This document shows, piece after piece, positions 7,202 to 16,751 of a stretch of DNA of 64,000 nt. Below the pieces are notes generated by a model. That model had not been told where the DNA came from. It did not search any database and saw only the letters and a program-made list of their open reading frames with translations. The position numbers and the translations under genes are program-made. How positions within the stretch are numbered: the first letter of the stretch is position 1; each line of letters starts with the position of its first letter. The stretch is from Patescibacteria group bacterium (lineage in GTDB: Bacteria; Patescibacteriota; Kazan-3B-28; UBA10110): NCBI GenBank assembly GCA_041659905.1, contig JBAZXK010000002.1, positions 30,723-94,722 of the forward strand, in the 5' to 3' direction.

Positions 7202-7842
7202 TATGATTTAAAAATATTTTTCTCACCTTCGCCAATAATCTTTGTCTTTTTGCCTTTAACTAAGACGGCTTGCTTGTCAGTTAAGGCAATAACTGGATAT
7301 TTAGCTTTATTGGCAGCTTTGGTTATCACTTCTCTTAAACCCTCTTCAAAATGAGCTGTAATTAGAAAGGGAACCAAGTTTAATCCTCTTAAATCAGTCA
7401 GTTTCATATAGTTTCTATCGGCGTGCTTCCAAGAAGCTGCTTCGATAGTTGGACAAGCCACATAACTACCTGCACTAACCCCTACATATACCCCATCTTT
7501 TTTAACAAACGCCTTAATAACTTTATCTAAGCCAGTTTTTCTGAGACCGGCAAGATATTCAAAGGTATTGCCGCCAAAAACAAAGATAACATTTATTCCC
7601 TTTATATCTTCCGGTTTAATTTTTCTTTCAAACTGGAAAAAAGTTATATTCGACTTTGGTATATTAACTCCCTTAAGCTGTCTAAATAGCCGACGAATAT
7701 ATTTATCGCGGTCAGCGTATTTAGTTGGGGTGATTACGAATAATATTCTGATGTTAGTTGGTTTTTTGCCAACCAGTTTAATAAACTCATCACCAATAGA
7801 CGGACATTTCCACCAACCTGACGATGTAAGAAGCAATTTCAT
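7201..7842 (-). CDS. peptidase S51 family (dipeptidase E / cyanophycinase-like)
   Basis: LLTSSG, FGGNTFEYL and GVSAGS motifs of the S51 Ser-His-Glu peptidases. Confidence 0.7.
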   Translation of the reverse strand: MKLLLTSSGWWKCPSIGDEFIKLVGKKPTNIRILFVITPTKYADRDKYIRRLFRQLKGVNIPKSNITFFQFERKIKPEDIKGINVIFVFGGNTFEYLAGLRKTGLDKVIKAFVKKDGVYVGVSAGSYVACPTIEAASWKHADRNYMKLTDLRGLNLVPFLITAHFEEGLREVITKAANKAKYPVIALTDKQAVLVKGKKTKIIGEGEKNIFKS

Positions 7843-8231
7843 AATCCTATTTCATCTAATAAAGGGATTCCGTTTGGCCAAATTAACTCTCTGGCTTTAG
7901 TAGCATCCACCCATTCAACATTCCCTTCCCCTTCATCAATTTTTTCTATAGGTTTAGCCCAAAACATAGCTACTCTAATAGGTTCACCAGTTTCTCCATG
8001 GTGGTAAACCACATCTTGTAAACGCTTGATTATTTCTACCTTATAGCCAGTTTCTTCCAGCGTTTCTCTTAAAGCAACTTGCTCAATATCTTCACCTGTT
8101 TCGGCATGTCCTTTTGGAAAAGCCCAGGCACTTCTGTCTTCAGTGGTGACAAGAAGAACATTAGAGCCATCAACCACTACACAACCAGCCTTTAATATCT
8201 CTCCTGCATCATTCTTTATTTCCATATTCAT
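7839..8231 (-). CDS. NUDIX hydrolase
   Basis: Canonical Nudix box GHAETGEDIEQVALRETLEETGY. Confidence 0.85.
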   Translation of the reverse strand: MNMEIKNDAGEILKAGCVVVDGSNVLLVTTEDRSAWAFPKGHAETGEDIEQVALRETLEETGYKVEIIKRLQDVVYHHGETGEPIRVAMFWAKPIEKIDEGEGNVEWVDATKARELIWPNGIPLLDEIGL

Positions 8232-8273
8232 ATCTTACCAATTCTAACTCAGCAGTAGGCATACAAACTTTTA

Positions 8274-8810
8274 CTAAAGAAGATTTACTATCTCTTGAGC
8301 AACCTCTTCTGGTGTTTTGTTTTCCGTATCAATAATGGGCGCGCCTTCTTTCTTGAATATGTCGTATAACCAAGGTGCAGCTGATAAGATATCCTCAATA
8401 AATTTATCTAAGGGAACACCTGCCGCCCTGCTGATTTCTGCTATACTCTCTGGGGTTTGGTATCTGCTTAGCAACCGTTTTTTGATAGTGTCATTTGAAG
8501 CATGCAGCAAAACCAGCTGAGCCGGAGGGTGGTTTTCTTTACTGTATACTTTCCAAAAACGTTCCGGTTCTACAAAACCGCAAACAATAGTAGACTTCCC
8601 GAGCTCTGCATTTTCGGCAGCAGTTTCTAACCAATAGAGAGTCTCGGCATTGTGCCACTCGTGACCACCACCAGCTGGGACACCTCGTTCATCAAAATCT
8701 CGGATATCATATTCATCTGCTGAGAGCAGGCTTTTCAGATACTTAATAACTGAGGACTTACCGACTCCGCTAACACCGGAAATAAAATATACTATCGGAC
8801 TATTTTCCAT
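8274..8810 (-). CDS. P-loop NTPase, predicted nucleotide/nucleoside kinase-like
   Basis: Walker A GVSGVGKSS at the N-terminus. 178 aa. Confidence 0.55.
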   Translation of the reverse strand: MENSPIVYFISGVSGVGKSSVIKYLKSLLSADEYDIRDFDERGVPAGGGHEWHNAETLYWLETAAENAELGKSTIVCGFVEPERFWKVYSKENHPPAQLVLLHASNDTIKKRLLSRYQTPESIAEISRAAGVPLDKFIEDILSAAPWLYDIFKKEGAPIIDTENKTPEEVAQEIVNLL

Positions 8811-9018
8811 ATTGATATTGTATCCCCTTAGAAGCGGCTGAGTAAAACTCGAGGAAGCGCTATTCTTGCCCTAGGATCGGGATTAATTGCTCCACAGGTA
8901 AATGACATTGTAAATTGTCAGTACTCACTGTCGATATACTAGACGGTAATTATCTGAGATTCAAAAGATCGCCCCAACATTGGAGCGATCATGTATTCTT
9001 TGGCTTAACGACCAAGGA

Positions 9019-10335
9019 TCAATAATCAACCTTGAATTGAAACGGACTGTATCCATCGTTGACCGTTGCTTTGAAAGCAGTGAAAATTTCCTCTCGGGCT
9101 ACTCTTGGGTCTACCTCGTAAGGATAGTCGTAAAGTATGCTCCGACGATGCCACTGGCTGTAGTCTTGATGACAAATCCATGATTTGGTTTTGTCGTAGA
9201 TCTCGGTCCCCGGGAAAGGAACTAAGTATGACACCCCTAGCTCGTAGGGCTTACATTTCTGCACTAGACGAATAGTCGCTTCGATGTCTGCCCGTGTCTC
9301 TCCGGGTATAGCTACAATCAAGCACATCCCGGTTTTTATCCCGACTTGTTTGCACAAATCGAAGGCTAACGCCACCTGTGAGTCAGTGAATCCTTTATGG
9401 AGTTCTCTCAGAATTCGATTGCTCCCCGACTCAACACCAAAACATAGTTGAGAACAACCAGCTTCTTTCATTTTCCTTAACAGCGCCAAGTCAACGCTAT
9501 CAACTCGGGTTTCGGCACTCCAGGAAATTGTTGGACCTCCTTTGACCAGCTTTTCACAAATCGACATGACTCGATCACGCTGGTAGCATAAGAAGTCGTC
9601 ACAGAGCATGATTTCGTCAACGGAGTAGCGCTGATAGAGATACTGCATTTCTCCAACCACTCGTTGTGGTGAATGCGGCCGGAAGCCTTTCCCAGAAACG
9701 CCCTTATCGCAAAAACTACATCCATAAGGGCATCCTCTGGAACTAAACATCGTGGCGATGGAAATGCCCACTTCTTTACTTAGATTTTCCAGGTATCTTT
9801 CCAACGGCAACAATTCGCGATTTGGTTCTGGAATGGCATCCAAATCTTGCGGTGGCTGGCATTTCACCATTGCCGGTCCAATCAATTTTCTTTGGCGAAT
9901 CCAATCTTCCAAAGAAACTGATGCCAACAAATCAACCAACATCACGGGAAAATTTTCGGCTTCTCCCTGGACAACCATATCTACATTATCTGCAGATAAG
10001 CCCCCATGGGTGATGGCACTAATACCGGGTCCACCAAAGATAATCATTTTCTGGGGATCATTTTCTTTGATACATCGAGCGATACGTAGCGCCTCGCCAA
10101 TTTCAGTGATAGTAGTGCTGATGCCAATGATACGAGTCCGGATGTTGTCGATACTAGCCTGGTAATCATGTTCGGCCAAGAGCTGGCCATTGATAAATGA
10201 AGTTTCCCAGCCGTTCTTTTGGAAAGCTGCTATCAAATAGAGCAATCCCAGCGGTGGATATAATCTAAATTCAATTTCCTCCGCTGGACGGGGAAAAATC
10301 AAGGTGATTTCCTTTGCTACCCACTTGGCAGTCAT
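9019..10335 (-). CDS. B12-binding domain radical SAM protein (class B radical SAM)
   Basis: N-terminal B12-binding-like Rossmann region, then the CPYGCSFC (Cx3Cx2C) radical SAM motif. 438 aa. Confidence 0.8.
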   Translation of the reverse strand: MTAKWVAKEITLIFPRPAEEIEFRLYPPLGLLYLIAAFQKNGWETSFINGQLLAEHDYQASIDNIRTRIIGISTTITEIGEALRIARCIKENDPQKMIIFGGPGISAITHGGLSADNVDMVVQGEAENFPVMLVDLLASVSLEDWIRQRKLIGPAMVKCQPPQDLDAIPEPNRELLPLERYLENLSKEVGISIATMFSSRGCPYGCSFCDKGVSGKGFRPHSPQRVVGEMQYLYQRYSVDEIMLCDDFLCYQRDRVMSICEKLVKGGPTISWSAETRVDSVDLALLRKMKEAGCSQLCFGVESGSNRILRELHKGFTDSQVALAFDLCKQVGIKTGMCLIVAIPGETRADIEATIRLVQKCKPYELGVSYLVPFPGTEIYDKTKSWICHQDYSQWHRRSILYDYPYEVDPRVAREEIFTAFKATVNDGYSPFQFKVDY

Positions 10336-10402
10336 GGTGGCCTCCTTTCAAAGAGCGAGATTAAGATAGAATATCATAACATATTAATTAATATGGTTGA
10401 TA

Positions 10403-10440
10403 CAAAAAAAAACGGATGGCCGAGAACGGCCATCCGTTGG
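10403..10440 (-). terminator. Rho-independent terminator after ABC-F gene
   Basis: Stem AACGGATGGCC / GGCCATCCGTT followed on the minus strand by U9. Confidence 0.75.
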
Positions 10441-10460
10441 AATACTCAATGGTTATTACT

Positions 10461-12104
10461 TTAAAGCATATTGATCAGTCGCTTAGCTTCCCGCTCAGCG
10501 TCAGCCAAATATGCTTCGTAGTTTTGTTGACGGTCGAGCTTACCGTCAGAAAGAACATAGGTGTCAGTGGGATTGAACTTCTGGAGAAAATATCGATCGT
10601 GTGACACCAACACAATCGTACCTTCATAGTGAGTAACTGCTTCTTCCAGTGCTTCTAGTGCTTCTATGTCCAGATGATTAGTCGGCTCATCAAGAAGCAA
10701 AGTATTCACCGATAAAGCAGAGAATAACGCCAATAGCAACCGTGATCTCCCGCCGGGAGAAAGGTTACTCACAGTCTTGCCAATTTCTTCAGGACTAAAA
10801 CCGTAATGAACAGCTAAAGCATATGCATCAGGAACTGGCAAATGACCTTTTTGCGTTAACAGATCAGAAAGGGTTGTCTCACGAGGAAGATTGTCATGTT
10901 CTTGCATTAAATTGCCTATAATCAGCGCATTGCCGACTCTCACCTCCCCCGCTAGGGGCGACAACTCCCCCCCAATTGTTTTGAGGAGAGTGGACTTGCC
11001 TGATCCATTCAAACCAAGAATCACCACTCGGCTACCGTAAGGAAAAATAGCAGATATGGGCCCGATTTGAAAACCGCTTTGGGCATATCCGGCAACCACA
11101 CCTTGCAATACTATGTCCTTGGATCCTCCGGGTTTTAATGGTCTGATATTGATGCGAAACAATTCTCGCTCGAGCGGTTTTTCAACTTTCTCCATCTGCT
11201 CAATGCGCTTTTCGATTGCCTTTGCAGCTCGACTAGAGCCGGCCGCCCGATCCCGTTTAAACCCTTGCAGAAACTTGTCGCTAGCGGAGCCGCGAAAGTT
11301 GGCACCTTTGGCCGCTTGAGCCCGTTTAGACTTAGCTGCCCCAACCAGCCGTTGAGTTTCCTCTTGTTGTGCCTCATAATCAGCTGCCTGTTTTCTGCGT
11401 TCCTTTTCTCTCCGTTCCAAATAGTCGGAATATCGACCATTAGTAACATTGAGCGAACGAGTATGCCAGTCAATTTCGAAAATCTTTCTAACCACTCGAT
11501 CAAGAAACGTGCGGTCATGAGAAACCACCAAACAAGCTGCTGGTGATCGCATCAAAAAATCTTCGAGCCAAATCAAAGCTGAGAGATCAAGGTTGTTGGT
11601 CGGCTCGTCTAATAGCAGTAAATCCGCATCGGACAATAGCACACCGGCCATCAATACCTTGCTTTTCTGACCGGATGACAATGTGTTAATCGATCGATCA
11701 TTGTCAACACCGCTCAAACCGAATCCCGCTAGGGTTATTTGCATTCGATAGTCGAAAGAATAACCTCCTCGGCTCTCGTATTCTTCAACTGCTTCTGGAG
11801 ATGTTTCAAGCTGGGCTTCCAGATCCCCAATACCCGTTACTCTACGTAAATAGTCACCAATGGTTTCGTCGGTCATCAGGCTGGTGTCCTGCGGCATATA
11901 GCCAATAGTTAGGCCCTTGCGCAAAGTGACAGTGCCGGCATCAGGCTCAACTAACCCCGCAATGATTTGCAGGAGAGTTGATTTACCCGTGCCATTACCA
12001 CCAACTAGCCCTACCTTCTGACCTTTTTCCAACGAAAACGAAATATCATTGATGACCGTAACGGTCTCGTAGGTTTTGCCAATTCGTTCAATCTTGACTT
12101 CCAT
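10461..12104 (-). CDS. ABC-F family ATPase (tandem ABC domains, no transmembrane domain; EttA/Uup/ARE-like)
   Basis: Two Walker A motifs (GGNGTGKST, GLNGSGKST) and two signature motifs (LSGGQKSKV, LSPGGRSRL) with a charged linker between them. 547 aa. Confidence 0.85.
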   Translation of the reverse strand: MEVKIERIGKTYETVTVINDISFSLEKGQKVGLVGGNGTGKSTLLQIIAGLVEPDAGTVTLRKGLTIGYMPQDTSLMTDETIGDYLRRVTGIGDLEAQLETSPEAVEEYESRGGYSFDYRMQITLAGFGLSGVDNDRSINTLSSGQKSKVLMAGVLLSDADLLLLDEPTNNLDLSALIWLEDFLMRSPAACLVVSHDRTFLDRVVRKIFEIDWHTRSLNVTNGRYSDYLERREKERRKQAADYEAQQEETQRLVGAAKSKRAQAAKGANFRGSASDKFLQGFKRDRAAGSSRAAKAIEKRIEQMEKVEKPLERELFRINIRPLKPGGSKDIVLQGVVAGYAQSGFQIGPISAIFPYGSRVVILGLNGSGKSTLLKTIGGELSPLAGEVRVGNALIIGNLMQEHDNLPRETTLSDLLTQKGHLPVPDAYALAVHYGFSPEEIGKTVSNLSPGGRSRLLLALFSALSVNTLLLDEPTNHLDIEALEALEEAVTHYEGTIVLVSHDRYFLQKFNPTDTYVLSDGKLDRQQNYEAYLADAEREAKRLINML

Positions 12105-12244
12105 GATTTCGCTCCTTTTTTATTATTTTCTCATGGAACTAAGAAAAATTTGTCAAAGCCCCATTTCCCCCTGGGGACAGAATGTTCCCATTCTTACAAT
12201 TGAGGGTAGCACAACCTGGTAGCTTTGTCCATGAATAAACACAT

Positions 12245-12278
12245 ACGGAAATCTCCCCAGATTGTGGGGAGATTCAGG
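12245..12278 (-). terminator. putative terminator after MTAP gene
   Basis: Hairpin AATCTCCCCA-GATTG-TGGGGAGATT just downstream (minus strand) of the stop at 12295. The U-tract is weak. Confidence 0.4.
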
Positions 12279-12294
12279 TTCAAATTTAACTGGG

Positions 12295-13170
12295 TCAACT
12301 TCGAGCTTTGTAATACTCCGCTATTCTGGTACCCGCACAGTTACAAGTCACCAGTTCCGTAGCATGCCCCGCCAGCCGGGAAATCAGTTTTAGTGTATTG
12401 ACAGTGTTGCTCTGGAAGATGGCTAAAACCTTCTCCATATTGCCAGGTTGCATTGATAGACTGCTAGGCACTCCTACATCGTAATCAGTTACTGATGCGA
12501 CTGCGCCATAGCAAATTCCGAGCTCGTGAGCAAAATAACATTCTGGGTACTGAGTCATATTGACTACATGCCCTCCCCACAGCATGAACATCTTGCTTTC
12601 CGCCACGGTAGAAAACCGTGGCCCTTGGATAACAACCACTGTTCCGCCAATCCGATGGGGTATTCCGCTCAACTCCAGCTCCCGCTCCATTATCCCGCTC
12701 AGGTGAGAGCAATAAGGAGCACTCATGCCAAGATGAACAACTTCAGAGTCCACCGTCGAGGTATCATCACGCCCCCAGGTAAAGTTGATGAACTGGTCTA
12801 GGATCACCAGTGTACCTGGAGCTATACTTTCCTGCAGACTACCCACCACACAAGTCGCAATAACATGGTTCGCGCCGACGGATTTTAACGCGAATAAGTT
12901 GGCCTTATAGGGCACTTTATGCGGTAGGATGGTGTGGTCTTTGCCATGCCGAGGTAAAAAAGCAATTCGACTGCCATTACAATCGCCCACACTAATTGCA
13001 GACGAAGGTTTTCCATATGGCGTGTCTACATCCACTTCTTTTTGGATATTAAACCCCGGCAGACTACATAGGCCCGATCCTCCGATGATACCGATAACTC
13101 CAGAAAGGGATTTGCCCGTTGAGAAGTTGGCATCGCCGGTTTGGCTCAAGAATTCTCCAGATGAGTCCAT
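12295..13170 (-). CDS. mtnP: 5'-methylthioadenosine / purine nucleoside phosphorylase (MTAP family)
   Basis: IGIIGGSGL N-terminal motif and PRHG...H family motifs. The ORF is open up to 13221, but the Met at 13170 (MDSSGE) is the plausible start. It overlaps the 3' end of the upstream radical SAM gene in another frame. Confidence 0.75.
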   Translation of the reverse strand: MDSSGEFLSQTGDANFSTGKSLSGVIGIIGGSGLCSLPGFNIQKEVDVDTPYGKPSSAISVGDCNGSRIAFLPRHGKDHTILPHKVPYKANLFALKSVGANHVIATCVVGSLQESIAPGTLVILDQFINFTWGRDDTSTVDSEVVHLGMSAPYCSHLSGIMERELELSGIPHRIGGTVVVIQGPRFSTVAESKMFMLWGGHVVNMTQYPECYFAHELGICYGAVASVTDYDVGVPSSLSMQPGNMEKVLAIFQSNTVNTLKLISRLAGHATELVTCNCAGTRIAEYYKARS

Positions 13171-14575
13171 GTGTAATCTCCTGGGTAAAGACAGTATTTC
13201 CTGCATCTGTAGCAGTAACACTGCCTAATAGCTCGTGTGTTCCCCATGCACATCCTCCACCATCCAACATGCCGTAATTCTTGCCAAGGATTTTACGATC
13301 ACTAATGAGAGGAACACGCTGCCTCCAAGCTTTCACTGTTTTAGTGTCAGCAATTCTGAAAGAAGCAGGCAGTTCGCTAACATGTCCCTGATCACACCGA
13401 AGAAATGGACAATTAGTTACTTGGCCATCAGGCTGAATTACCAACTGGCTGCCATAACAAGTGCAATCAATGCTAAAAGGTAGTGCTTGGCGCAAGGCCG
13501 TCAGTTTTTTCTCCAGCTGATACTCAAAAAAATCATCGCCATCGGTTTGATGTGCATCATTCCAGCCGGAAAGGACACCCTGAGCAGCGGCTAGGTAATA
13601 ACTGTCCGGATCGATCGCTAACGGAGACTCTAACAAAGCATTCCCTTTCAGTAAATTAAAGCCAAACTTGGACACGCCTAGATCTTGCAAGAATTTCGGA
13701 TACTCGTCCAGGATGGCGATATTCTCTGCATTAATGATCACCGATGCTACAACCTTTACTCGGTTAGCCGTCAGGATTTTGATTGCCTGGGCAATTCCGG
13801 CAAAAGTTGGTTCCCCGGCAGAGGTCCGCCTTGATTTGTTATTGATTGCAGAAGGACCGTCAATGCCGACTGCTACCATAACCTTATGGTCCGCTAACAG
13901 CTTGACTAGCTCCTCATCGATCAATATGCCATTAGTACATAACATTAGCTCCAAATTCTGGGGTAGCCTTCCCAGAGCCTTCTCTGCTTCCACAAAAGGC
14001 AAAACCTTCTCGAACACTGGGCGGTTCAATAGAGGTTCTCCTCCGTAGAAAACTAGAAAGAAGGGCTCACTGTCTTCACCTGAAAAGTCCTCGATATGTT
14101 TCTCCCATAATTGGATCCCGGCAACTGCATCGTCCCAAGACAATTTACTGTCACCGTATTGTTTTGCCAATTTGGGGATCGGACAATATCCGCAGGCAAA
14201 GTTACAGTTCTGTGCCAACATTAAATACAGGATGGTTGGCCGATCTAAGAGCTGGATTGCCCATTTCTGGGCAACTTCCAACTCTTGCTGGTCGATCTCC
14301 GATGATGCTATCAACATCTTTTTCTCGCATAGTTCAACGACTAGATCATTCAAGCAGAGATTACCCGGCAACCTGCCATCCATGGCATTCCAAACTGTGG
14401 TTGGCAAATACACAGGCTCCGGATGTAATTGATGGAAAAGTGCTGATATTCCATCCTGCTCCAAATGACAAAGAAATCGAGATTCCTGGAAAAACTGATC
14501 CATAATTATCCCTTCTTTCTGAAGAAAAAGCCCCCGTGTCCAAACGGGGGCTACATGTGGTCTCACTGTACGCAA
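13064..14575 (-). CDS. radical SAM/SPASM-domain enzyme with N-terminal RRE-like extension (peptide-maturase-like)
   Basis: CNFACGYC (Cx3Cx2C) about 100 aa into the protein. C-terminal Cys-rich SPASM-like region (CTCYG...NCPFLRC...DGGGCAWG). The N-terminal ~95 aa contain a PqqD-like motif TVWNAMDG..LNDLVVEL. The alternative start MDQFF is at 14503. Confidence 0.8.
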   Translation of the reverse strand: MRTVRPHVAPVWTRGLFLQKEGIIMDQFFQESRFLCHLEQDGISALFHQLHPEPVYLPTTVWNAMDGRLPGNLCLNDLVVELCEKKMLIASSEIDQQELEVAQKWAIQLLDRPTILYLMLAQNCNFACGYCPIPKLAKQYGDSKLSWDDAVAGIQLWEKHIEDFSGEDSEPFFLVFYGGEPLLNRPVFEKVLPFVEAEKALGRLPQNLELMLCTNGILIDEELVKLLADHKVMVAVGIDGPSAINNKSRRTSAGEPTFAGIAQAIKILTANRVKVVASVIINAENIAILDEYPKFLQDLGVSKFGFNLLKGNALLESPLAIDPDSYYLAAAQGVLSGWNDAHQTDGDDFFEYQLEKKLTALRQALPFSIDCTCYGSQLVIQPDGQVTNCPFLRCDQGHVSELPASFRIADTKTVKAWRQRVPLISDRKILGKNYGMLDGGGCAWGTHELLGSVTATDAGNTVFTQEITHGLIWRILEPNRRCQLLNGQIPFWSYRYHRRIGPM

Positions 14576-14592
14576 AAGCGAATTGCGGTCGG

Positions 14593-14769
14593 TTACTCTC
14601 TTACCTTTTCGGCCGCTTCGAGCAACTGCTCCTTGGTCAACTTGACCTGGTTGCCATCATCGTCAGTGATCTTCACGTTGCCTTCGCGCTTGTTGACTTC
14701 CACGGTGGGGCAACAGCCTTTAACACCGCAGAGTTTGTAGCGCTTAATGTCCTCATTATTGGGCATCAT
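14593..14769 (-). CDS. small Cys-containing protein, candidate RiPP precursor or small metal-binding protein (not in the ORF track because it is under 60 aa)
   Basis: ATGATG start preceded by AAGGAGG 5 nt upstream. Translation is MMPNNEDIKRYKLCGVKGCCPTVEVNKREGNVKITDDDGNQVKLTKEQLLEAAEKVRE (58 aa, Cys at 14, 19 and 20). Its stop lies 18 nt upstream of the radical SAM ORF. Confidence 0.5.
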   Translation of the reverse strand: MMPNNEDIKRYKLCGVKGCCPTVEVNKREGNVKITDDDGNQVKLTKEQLLEAAEKVRE

Positions 14770-14992
14770 TGGCCCTCCTTTTTCATGAATTTGAGGTCAA
14801 AGATCATGCAGAACTACTTCTGCTTAACCCAAACTTACCTCATTAAACAGAATTAGTCCATATGACGGTCTCTACAGGCACAAATGAGACAATGGCAAGG
14901 GGATATGAAAATATCTCATATATGGCCTAATAATCAGTCTAATAGTCAAATCAACCAAGATAGGCACCTCGGTCATTTGATTCGTTTTTATT

Positions 14993-15275
14993 TGGCTCCG
15001 GGGGAGGGATTCGAACCCACGACCAATTGATTACACAAATCCATAATTTTCATTATGGCGTGGACTATATCTTTACCATGCCTCATTTGGAGAGGTTTAG
15101 GCATCTCGGTATCTAGTCTCTACGGCGCCCTCAATTTTAAATTGAGGTTCCCACGGTGTTAACATATCTCACGACTTAGTCTTCACCGTTATCCCAAGAT
15201 GTTCACTTTGGCGTTTCCACCAAAGGCTGCGTTTTATGATCACAGTCAACTGCTCTACCGCTGAGCTACCCCGGA
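14993..15275 (-). tRNA. tRNA-Asn (anticodon GUU) interrupted by a 208-nt group I intron
   Basis: The 5' exon is 15275..15242 (UCCGGGGUAGCUCAGCGGUAGAGCAGUUGACUGU). The 3' exon is 15033..14993 (UAAUCAAUUGGUCGUGGGUUCGAAUCCCUCCCCCGGAGCCA). Joined, they give a 75-nt cloverleaf with anticodon loop CUGUUAA, a U1:A72 pair and a G73 discriminator, as in bacterial tRNA-Asn. Confidence 0.8.
15034..15241 (-). ncRNA. group I self-splicing intron (ORF-less) in tRNA-Asn anticodon loop
   Basis: The 5' exon ends in U, which can pair as U.G with a GCAG guide sequence about 12 nt into the intron. There is a P2 hairpin CUUUGG...CCAAAG. GUAGAGACUAGA and AAGAUAUAGUCC elements are present, and the intron ends in G. 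Confidence 0.75.
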
Positions 15276-15305
15276 TTGTCAAATTACTTACCTATATATT
15301 CTAAC

Positions 15306-16751
15306 CTATTCGAGATAATCCTTTAATTTCTTAGAATCTTTAGATTTTTTGAGTTTCGCGAGGGCTTTGGCTTCGATCTGGCGAATGCGCTCGCGCGTTA
15401 CTCCAAATTCATGCCCGACTTCTTCTAAAGTATGTGCCCACTCCCCGTCTAAGCCAAAGCGCATCTTTAATATTTTCTGTTCCCGCGGGGTAAGTAGATG
15501 CAACACACTACCTATATCTGACTTCAATAAATCTTGGGCGGATTGTTCATCTGGCGTTAAACTATCTTCATCTTTGATAAAATCGCCCAGCAGGCTATCG
15601 TCTTCATCACCGACAGATTTCTCTAACGACACGGTTTCCTGTGAAATTTTAAGGATGTGGTTAACCTTTTCTAATTCAATCCCCATTTCGTTGGCAATTT
15701 CCTCAGGTGAAGGCGGCCGACCCAACTCTTGCACCATCTGCCGCTGAGTGCGTGCCAAGCGATTCATCGTTTCGACCATATGCACCGGAATCCGGATAGT
15801 GCGGGCTTGGTCTGCGATCGCCCGGGTAATGGCCTGTTTAATCCACCAGGTCGCATAAGTAGAGAATTTAAACCCGCGTTTGTAGTCGAATTTATCTACC
15901 GCTTTCATCAAACCGATATTGCCTTCCTGGATTAAATCCAGGAGCGACAATCCCCGGCCGATATATTTCTTAGCAATACTTACAACTAACCGCAAGTTGG
16001 CTTCGGCTAAGGCTTTGGCAGCCATCGTGTCGCCAGCTGCCACCCGTTTAGCTAAAGCCACTTCTTCCGGCTTCTTCAATAAGGCGATCTGCCCAATTTC
16101 CTTCAAATACATCCGCACCGAATCTTCGCCAATCGCTTCGGTGGATTCTTCTTCGCTCAATCCTTTTTTGACCGGTTTTTTACTCTTGCGGACTTTCTTA
16201 GTTTCTACATCCGAAGCTCCGGATTGCCAAATCAGATCCTCGCGCAAATCTACCACTTCTATCCCTAAATCTAAGAAGGATTCGTACAGCTTATCCAGTA
16301 GCTCGATGTTATTTTCGGCATCAGGAACTGCTTGATTTAATTCCTGCTGCGTAACAAAATTTTGGTCTTGCGCTTTCAGTAATAAATATTCGATCTCTGG
16401 CGGAAAATTGTACTTTTTTAGTTTATCCTTAAAACTTTGAACTTCTTCTATCTCGTCTTCCAGTTGTAATTCCGGCTCCTGTTGTTCTACGACTGGAATA
16501 ACTAGTTCTTCGATTTTTTTTATTTTCTTTTTTGGTTTAATTACTGCTTTGACAGGTTTCTTGGCTGCTTTTTTGGCCGCTGGTTTTGCGCGGTGCGGGG
16601 CCTTCACCGCTTTCTTCAATTTATGAGCCGTTTTTTTCACCGGCTTAGTTGCCTTTTTGGCAAATTTAGCCTTCTTTCTTGAAGGCATAGTGGTTTTTCT
16701 CTGCTTAGCTTTTGCCGAAGCAGACTTCTTGGCTGATTGTTTCTTCGCCAT
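15306..16751 (-). CDS. rpoD: RNA polymerase sigma-70 factor (primary sigma)
   Basis: Regions 2-4 are conserved ([63 protein letters not shown]). N-terminus is K-rich. Confidence 0.9.

Follow-up and report, generated by a model that had tools for sequence, protein, structure and literature searches.

The window examined here is a stretch of 64,000 nucleotides of contig JBAZXK010000002.1 (assembly GCA_041659905.1, positions 30,723 to 94,722) from a Patescibacteria bacterium; its genome is reduced, as an earlier reading made from the sequence alone (the sequence-only reading) had held. Its reverse strand carries, in this order, the genes for a small protein of 58 amino acids (14593..14769), a 479-residue radical S-adenosylmethionine (SAM) enzyme (13064..14503), a 291-residue purine nucleoside phosphorylase of the MTAP family (12295..13170) and a 547-residue ABC-F ATPase (10461..12104). 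A terminator scan places a GC-rich, attenuator- or terminator-like hairpin with a U tract on the same strand between the small open reading frame (ORF) and the radical SAM start (14529..14552), and a strong terminator-like hairpin of 12 bp followed by T8, also on this strand, closes the four-gene unit (10411..10438). Judged by their sequences, these genes constitute a four-gene module of the candidate phyla radiation (CPR): a small Cys/Asp protein, a radical SAM enzyme bearing a domain that resembles the recognition element (RRE) of enzymes acting on peptides that are ribosomally synthesized and then modified post-translationally (RiPPs), an MTAP that begins within the radical SAM gene, and an ABC-F protein.

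The order small ORF, radical SAM gene, MTAP gene is kept at all 16 distinct loci, the window included, amid flanking genes that are unrelated. MTAP homologues with 51-68% identity show the same arrangement on unrelated contigs, and seven of the eight that were looked up carry a radical SAM gene. When one genome per species was scanned with an alignment of the radical SAM enzyme, independently of MTAP, nine loci emerged, each with an MTAP gene directly 3′ of the radical SAM gene. As an indirect sign of co-location, the lists of the best 120 matches to MTAP and to the radical SAM enzyme have 43 longest contigs of identical size in common. The sequence-only reading had called the phosphorylase hard-wired to radical SAM genes; its adjacency in relatives (16/16, in several CPR lineages, with the overlap also kept) bears this out. 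In the literature searched, we found neither the module nor an MTAP embedded in a radical SAM gene described.

The distribution of the module follows the CPR closely. Fourteen of the 16 loci come from CPR/Patescibacteria metagenome-assembled genomes (MAGs) or unlabelled metagenome contigs, and MAGs of Giovannonibacteria, Uhrbacteria, Kerfeldbacteria, Paceibacterota and others of the Parcubacteria group keep the arrangement. Seven of the nine loci from the radical SAM scan are labelled as CPR/Patescibacteria MAGs (Giovannonibacteria, three Uhrbacteria, Kerfeldbacteria, Parcubacteria and one with a “Saccharibacteria” label); the other two are one simply labelled “bacterium” and a 2.5-kb fragment labelled Gammaproteobacteria, which is probably mis-binned. 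Two of the 16 are short contigs with other labels. L010 (CAYGGS010000122.1) and P0189 are module contigs of 2.5-3.8 kb labelled Gammaproteobacteria and Chlamydiota; these labels are probably binning errors, because the other taxonomically labelled occurrences are CPR.

The radical SAM gene ends with a TAG codon at 13064-13066, such that it overlaps the MTAP gene by 107 nt (13064..13170). One frame of this segment encodes the C-terminal helices of the radical SAM enzyme, and the other encodes the N-terminus of MTAP, including the codons of the phosphate-loop motif IGIIGGSGL. We place the MTAP start at ATG 13170, since a Shine-Dalgarno element (AGGAG, 13178..13182, read from the sequence) lies upstream with a 7-nt spacer, embedded in the radical SAM codons for T-Q-E, and since the resulting N-terminus, M-[DNS]-[SL]-S-G, is common to MTAP homologues of 287-292 amino acids. 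The alternative start GTG 13221, which gives the longest ORF, was rejected on the same grounds. An MTAP start inside the 3′ end of the radical SAM gene, as claimed from the sequence alone, is thus not only present in the window, it is conserved; the overlap extends over 107 nt rather than 158, and the SPASM label attached to the enzyme gives way to a degenerate or twitch-like assignment, discussed below.

In all 14 loci for which it was computed (the window and 13 others), the MTAP start is internal to the radical SAM gene and lies in the same +1 relative frame. The overlap measures 98-137 nt in ten of these 14 loci; the other four are L011 (182 nt), L013 (119 nt), L012 (41 nt) and L019 (11 nt). 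The called radical SAM and MTAP genes of L020 and L021 overlap too, from called starts that may be truncated. Most of the other loci have a GGAG element 7-8 nt 5′ of the conserved internal start. Within the overlap, conservation shifts from one frame to the other. The first part preserves the radical SAM pattern ELIW.LLP.E.A.ALR.GE..HWSYR while the head of MTAP is variable, and the last part holds the MTAP motif IG[VI]IGGSGLC invariant while the radical SAM tail varies. Radical SAM residues 441-470, which are encoded in the overlap, are predicted by AlphaFold2 (AF2) to form helices, with a per-residue confidence (pLDDT) of 91-93. The alignments indicate that the shared DNA is truly dual-coding, with constraint partitioned between the two proteins, and that the recurrent overlap goes far beyond chance adjacency; the pairing is no local accident. 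The overlap also exposes a systematic annotation error. Public gene callers begin MTAP at an internal GTG or ATG and report proteins of 246-255 amino acids, which are shortened by 35-45 residues and have lost the phosphate-binding GGSG. Avoidance of overlaps by these programs explains the short calls.

The MTAP assignment, made from the motifs IGIIGGSGL and PRHG in the reverse-strand ORF 12295..13221, identified a real gene. The protein matches Pfam PNP_UDP_1 with 126.5 bits (cutoff 25.1), and its closest solved structures are all MTAPs, human and archaeal, at E ~1e-52. Its score against the MTAP equivalog model TIGR01694, 260.5 bits, falls slightly below the cutoff of 274.85; the remaining MTAP equivalog models are likewise missed, and the scores of the PNP and XapA models are far lower. 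GGSG, PRHG and NMT of the phosphate site, TDYD of the purine site and also PRFST are all kept. In human MTAP the residues of the phosphate and purine sites are T18, R60/H61, T93/A94, M196/T197, F177 and D220/D222. In an alignment to the human enzyme the canonical ligand residues are retained with the single difference of Cys-Val in place of T93/A94; in GGSG, Ser replaces human T18, as it does in archaeal MTAPs. The Cys at the T93 position is invariant in 18 of 18 aligned sequences. These include P0115, a CPR MTAP that has no radical SAM partner, and for this reason the Cys is a trait of the lineage.

The radical SAM enzyme matches PF04055 with 57 bits and carries its CX3CX2C cluster motif as CNFACGYC, which, together with the SAM-binding YGGEP, is invariant in 40 homologues; these are the marks of a canonical radical SAM enzyme that generates 5′-deoxyadenosine. 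Seven cysteines are conserved (C100, C104, C107, C347, C349, C365 and C418). Of the full SPASM motif (CX9-15GX4C ... CX2CX5CX3C ... C), the enzyme keeps CX9-15GX4C and one further Cys (C347, C349, C365, C418). Because the Pfam SPASM model does not match the window enzyme and these four are the only conserved C-terminal cysteines, the domain is a degenerate SPASM or a twitch-like one, in which a single auxiliary-cluster motif is retained. The best NCBIfam matches are peptide maturases only (FibroRumin system, QhpD, YhhB, anSME and PapB), all far below cutoff. We start the protein at ATG 14503; TTG 14575 was rejected as it would draw the conserved hairpin into the gene, and as the homologues have their starts close to ATG 14503.

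An AF2 model built from the 40 homologues (pLDDT 89.9, predicted template modeling score 0.90) has three strands followed by three helices at its N-terminus, the topology of an RRE, ahead of the radical SAM barrel. Foldseek aligns this model over its full length, in ~460-480 columns each, to the RRE-containing maturases TigE (E 8e-19) and CteB (E 2e-17), with anSME, ChlB, SkfB and SuiB as the next matches. The predicted structure is that of a peptide maturase with an RRE-like N-terminal domain. A divergent module, L019, bears on the function of this domain. Its radical SAM enzyme has 371 amino acids, keeps the full CX2CX5CX3C (CRNCSAKRICGGGC) and matches PF13186; it lacks the N-terminal domain, and the small ORF of the same locus begins at MCGVQGCCP, without the N-terminal strand. 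This covariation between leader and RRE-like domain, in which both are missing together, supports recognition of the N-terminus of the small protein by the RRE-like domain. A viral contig collection contained no relative of the radical SAM enzyme, and a phage origin of the module was dropped.

The small protein (LCGVKGCCPTVEV...ITDDDGNQVKLTKEQ; full sequence MMPNNEDIKRYKLCGVKGCCPTVEVNKREGNVKITDDDGNQVKLTKEQLLEAAEKVRE) is presumably the substrate of the radical SAM enzyme, or else its partner. An ORF of 45-65 amino acids lies directly 5′ of the radical SAM gene at each of the 16 distinct loci. A word-indexed homologue search with the window protein recovered the query alone; an exhaustive search gathers the family, with 74 representatives at E<1e-3. 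Residues C14, C20, D36 and D37 are invariant in this family, and L13, C19, P21 and G39 are nearly so. Conservation extends over the entire protein, for which AF2 predicts a compact structure of four strands and one helix (pLDDT 82.5); the cysteines are in the loop that joins strands 1 and 2, and the Asp-Asp pair is at the turn that joins strands 3 and 4. It has no family match in Pfam, NCBIfam or PHROG. A DUF397-like identity, suggested by a resemblance in pattern (CVEV ... RDS ... W), was abandoned when no Pfam match appeared even at E = 10. Leaderless relatives of the small protein (e.g. MKKYLCGHGKCCPSIEF...ITDDDNNQV) occur at L022:4947-5138, L023:2700-2837 and L024:1223-1402, with no radical SAM or MTAP gene directly adjacent; L022 has an unrelated radical SAM gene 3 kb away on the other strand. 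The regions around these relatives contain many small ORFs, including zinc-finger-like ones, and appear to be derived from phages or viruses.

The hairpin between the small ORF and the radical SAM gene is likewise conserved. In all 11 loci that were folded, an equivalent GCCCCTG...CAGGGGC stem with a U-rich tail lies just 5′ of the ribosome-binding site of the radical SAM gene. This layout recalls many peptide-modification operons, in which the precursor outnumbers the enzymes. An Rfam scan of 7500-15500 gave no SAM, S-adenosylhomocysteine or other riboswitch, and riboswitch control was dropped.

The fourth member of the module, the ABC-F ATPase, has two ABC domains and a linker (two ABC_tran and one ABC_tran_Xtn in Pfam) and no transmembrane domain. 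It scores 403.5 bits against NF000355, ‘ribosomal protection-like ABC-F’ (cutoff 380), and its solved relatives are YheS, EttA, VmlR/ExpZ and YbiT. Orthologues with 47-67% identity adjoin the module in 12 of the 15 assessable loci; in L005 the gene adjoins the module on its upstream side. L007 and L012 lack it, and L008 has a remnant only. In this last locus the final ~55 residues alone are detectable 3′ of MTAP (L008:8319-8471), and the small ORF is found ~1.2 kb further on, downstream of MTAP and on the opposite strand; this appears to be a decayed or rearranged copy of the module.

Beyond the closing terminator, the sequence-only reading had noted a second, B12-type radical SAM enzyme ~3 kb downstream on the same strand. 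This gene is indeed present: the 438-residue protein encoded at 9019..10335 on the reverse strand matches PF02310 and PF04055, and its best NCBIfam match is ApyD, far below cutoff. It lies ~2.8 kb from the MTAP start, with the ABC-F gene and the terminator-like hairpin in between, and is bracketed by terminator-like hairpins at 10411-10438 and 8967-8990. No homologue of it occurs in any other module locus. Because it has no counterpart at the other loci and terminators flank it on both sides, the gene is, on present comparisons, an addition specific to this genome that stands outside the conserved unit. We therefore do not follow the earlier reading in grouping it with the radical SAM-MTAP pair, and it was dropped as a module member. 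It has the look of a lone gene inserted between the ABC-F gene and the kinase gene described next, and its product may act on the same substrate.

A P-loop kinase (AAA_18 by Pfam; 8274..8810, reverse strand) is a possible loose accessory. P-loop kinases (AAA_18/33, PRK or KTI12 type) lie 3′ of the ABC-F gene in L005, L014, L017, L020 and L021; they come from different families, none of them being orthologous or similar to the window kinase, and the notion of the kinase as a fifth orthologous component was discarded. Nudix, HD and nucleotidyltransferase genes also recur near the module and again represent different families that are not orthologous; the window has a Nudix gene at 7839..8231. 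A conserved nucleotidyltransferase-fold protein of ~260 amino acids (MKYPSL...SSDIDLVV; weak NTP_transf_2/Polbeta matches) stands beside the module in three loci (L007:8270-9049; L011:4497-5291, reverse strand; L013:9933-10715, reverse strand) and replaces the ABC-F protein in L007. In L020, SAM synthetase (MetK) and Nudix genes (L020:1-725 and 2508-2981) lie within 3 kb 5′ of the module. PADLOC gave generic radical SAM and ATPase matches only, and an anti-phage defence system was dropped from consideration.

Upstream of the small-protein gene, the window contains a group I intron on the reverse strand (15041..15251; Rfam RF00028, E 2.9e-16, with 68.8 bits where the gathering score is 50). It lies in a tRNA-like gene with exons at ~15275-15243 and ~15030-14994, whose 5′ half is TCCGGGGTAGCTCAGCGGTAGAGCAGTTGACT and whose 3′ half ends GGTTCGAATCCCTCCCCCGGAGCCA; ARAGORN made no call here.

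The substrate of the phosphorylase can be approached through the genes that accompany it and its relatives. Tblastn searches with the MtnA, class II aldolase and APRT of a Peregrinibacteria operon (L016) as queries gave no match anywhere in the 64-kb window or at the module loci, and for these genes in this DNA the earlier supposition that methionine salvage is probably absent holds. The L016 operon belongs to the only MTAP homologue examined that lacks a radical SAM partner, that of Candidatus Peregrinibacteria GW2011_GWA2_43_8 (LCGT01000002.1; 53% identity). It encodes Aldolase_II, an IF-2B (MtnA-like) protein, an APRT-like phosphoribosyltransferase and MTAP, with short gene overlaps (L016:4077-6810), and looks like a salvage unit for 5′-deoxy-nucleosides of the dihydroxyacetone phosphate (DHAP) shunt type. 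From this gene content, close CPR relatives of the window MTAP appear to be used in 5′-deoxy-nucleoside handling, and the module version would have swapped those partners for a radical SAM enzyme. The premise that phosphorylases of this type can cleave 5′-deoxyadenosine is well founded, as MtnP cleaves 5′-methylthioadenosine (MTA) as well as 5′-deoxyadenosine, in vivo and in extracts (PMC8102628).

With moderate confidence, we favor the view that MTAP removes 5′-deoxyadenosine and recovers adenine for the benefit of its partner radical SAM enzyme. In the sequence of events that we envisage, the RRE-like domain of the radical SAM enzyme would bind the small protein by its N-terminal strand, and the enzyme would then modify this protein by means of 5′-deoxyadenosyl radicals. 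The most likely chemistry would involve the loop with the invariant Cys residues and the turn with the Asp-Asp pair, for example through Cys-to-Asp thioether cross-links such as those made by QhpD and PapB; it is the invariance of these Cys and Asp residues that suggests such links. Methionine and 5′-deoxyadenosine would be released at each turnover. MTAP, translated from its start ~100 nt inside the radical SAM gene, would be made along with the enzyme and would phosphorolyse 5′-deoxyadenosine to adenine and 5-deoxyribose-1-phosphate. This reaction would relieve product inhibition of the radical SAM enzyme and return adenine to an organism that is expected to depend on purine salvage. The ABC-F protein could handle an aspect of the process at the level of the ribosome, either by aiding translation of the small protein or by countering an action of the modified product on the ribosome. 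The pair is not the stand-alone disposal module that the sequence-only reading had envisioned. Because a small Cys protein upstream and an ABC-F protein downstream are conserved with it, the pair seems to belong to an operon for peptide or protein modification that has a scavenger built in.

Several considerations weigh against this view. The sequence of MTAP does not separate MTA from 5′-deoxyadenosine as the substrate, and among the module genes we identified none for an enzyme that would take 5-deoxyribose-1-phosphate further. Removal of a by-product needs no gene in cis, and would be of equal use to other radical SAM enzymes of the same genomes; a coupling as tight as this may for this reason mean more than scavenging. 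A disposal function also leaves the conserved ABC-F protein unexplained, and MTAP is the more constant of the two in the module (16/16 against 12/15 assessable loci). Finally, the leaderless relatives of the small protein stand alone, which suggests that the small protein may work unmodified, or may be a metal or redox partner rather than a substrate.

An alternative at the level of the module, which we judge unlikely, is that the small protein is a RiPP precursor, matured by the radical SAM enzyme into an agent directed against ribosomes, whether those of the host cell of these episymbionts or of the producer. The ABC-F protein would then confer immunity and MTAP would be a helper. The operon layout, with a precursor gene, a conserved leaky hairpin and an RRE-bearing radical SAM enzyme, resembles that of RiPP systems; the ABC-F protein, co-inherited with the module, exceeds the cutoff of a ribosomal protection-like family, and resistance-type neighbors (nucleotidyltransferases and P-loop kinases) recur. 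However, no leader protease or exporter is found among the conserved genes at any locus, and the supposed core is highly conserved within a protein that is predicted to fold as a whole, unlike typical RiPP precursors. Moreover, the ABC-F protein resembles the housekeeping proteins YheS, EttA and YbiT as much as it does the resistance proteins, and the rescue of hard-to-translate sequences by housekeeping ABC-Fs (PMC11162784) offers a simpler link to the module.

Less probable still is ordinary salvage of MTA and purine nucleosides, in which MTAP would be a general phosphorylase (for MTA, 5′-deoxyadenosine and adenosine) that became fixed beside the radical SAM gene through operon drift, the overlap reflecting mere compactness of the genome. 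The canonical sequence of MTAP fits this explanation, as does the related CPR enzyme in the general salvage operon of L016. CPR genomes are also compact and rich in nucleotide-salvage genes, and genes for uridine-kinase-type kinases, Nudix proteins and HD proteins turn up repeatedly near the module. Drift, however, would not be expected to keep one arrangement across CPR lineages amid differing flanking genes, nor to maintain a start codon and a ribosome-binding site inside a conserved radical SAM motif, and the salvage-type genes nearby are not orthologous between loci.

The tightness of the coupling also invites the idea of an adenosylated intermediate, whereby the radical SAM enzyme adds the 5′-deoxyadenosyl group to its substrate, be it the small protein or another molecule, and MTAP removes adenine to leave a ribosyl-1-phosphate. 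Pairs of a radical SAM enzyme and a PNP-family enzyme that operate in this manner are documented, namely HpnH with HpnG, which act in hopanoid synthesis, and, in the futalosine pathway, MqnE with MTAN or MqnB (PMC13459092). An internal start that is conserved, and an MTAP that is present at 16 of 16 loci while the ABC-F protein is sometimes missing, make for a coupling much tighter than scavenging needs, and a 5′-thioadenosine linked to Cys would structurally mimic MTA. In its most specific form, to which we give the same very low probability, the enzyme would adenosylate a residue in the invariant Cys loop of the small protein and MTAP, an enzyme that naturally acts on 5′-thio- and 5′-deoxy-adenosines, would clip off adenine, producing a protein-bound (thio)ribosyl-1-phosphate with a ribosome-related function involving the ABC-F protein; this would be a previously unknown protein modification. 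We regard adenosylation as very improbable, given that the radical SAM enzyme has the SPASM/twitch peptide-maturase fold and N-terminal domain (TigE, CteB, anSME), that all characterized maturases of this type abstract hydrogen and none is known to adenosylate, that neither a dehydratase nor any other source of an olefin acceptor is part of the module, and that the residues of MTAP that line the pocket for the 5′-substituent look canonical in the human alignment.

The module can be compared with known systems at several points. MtnP and other MTAPs of the DHAP shunt or 5-deoxyribose salvage, such as MtnP of Synechococcus elongatus, share family and catalytic motifs with the window enzyme, and the reaction that we propose is the same. 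Those are promiscuous housekeeping enzymes that are unlinked to radical SAM genes or are grouped with MtnA, MtnK and aldolase, whereas here no shunt genes lie nearby and MTAP is translationally embedded in one particular radical SAM gene. The formation of ribosylhopane from adenosylhopane by HpnH and HpnG, and the aminofutalosine route of MqnE with MTAN or MqnB, likewise pair a radical SAM enzyme, both genetically and in function, with an enzyme of the PNP/MTAN family. In these systems an olefin receives an adenosyl group from the radical SAM enzyme, and the resulting adduct is what the phosphorylase acts on. In contrast, the present module has a maturase of the SPASM/twitch type, no evident olefin acceptor, and a true MTAP rather than an enzyme of the HpnG or MqnB type.

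The radical SAM enzyme is closest to the RRE-dependent maturases (CteB, TigE, PapB, QhpD and anSME relatives), with which it shares the predicted fold and domain order over its full length and a small gene directly upstream; the invariant Cys and Asp residues of the small protein recall the thioether chemistry of QhpD and PapB. It differs in missing all curated cutoffs by far, in having one auxiliary-cluster motif, and in that its presumed substrate is a conserved, folded mini-protein. It is also accompanied by an obligatory MTAP and a near-obligatory ABC-F protein, companions that are not described for those systems. The ABC-F protein itself, by its two ABC domains and linker, its NF000355 match and its structure alignment, belongs to the class that includes the housekeeping members EttA, Uup, YbiT and YheS as well as the antibiotic resistance (ARE) and self-resistance proteins. 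Unlike known members, it is co-inherited with a radical SAM enzyme, an MTAP and a small protein, a link that was not found in the literature searched.

The clearance of 5′-deoxyadenosine by MTAP is already known as a biochemical idea. What is new is its dedicated, dual-coding and conserved coupling to one radical SAM enzyme, the near confinement of a four-gene module to CPR-labelled genomes, and an uncharacterized family of small proteins. Disposal of 5′-deoxyadenosine is usually regarded as a housekeeping task that methionine-salvage enzymes perform on the side; in this case, a phosphorylase appears to be built into a single radical SAM operon and kept there across CPR lineages. If our interpretation is correct, by-product removal or adenine recovery would be a selected, in-cis part of a radical SAM system in organisms of minimal metabolism, and co-expression of the partner MTAP might aid the reconstitution of radical SAM enzymes that are otherwise difficult to handle. 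The same uncharacterized module would then also tie protein modification to the ribosome.

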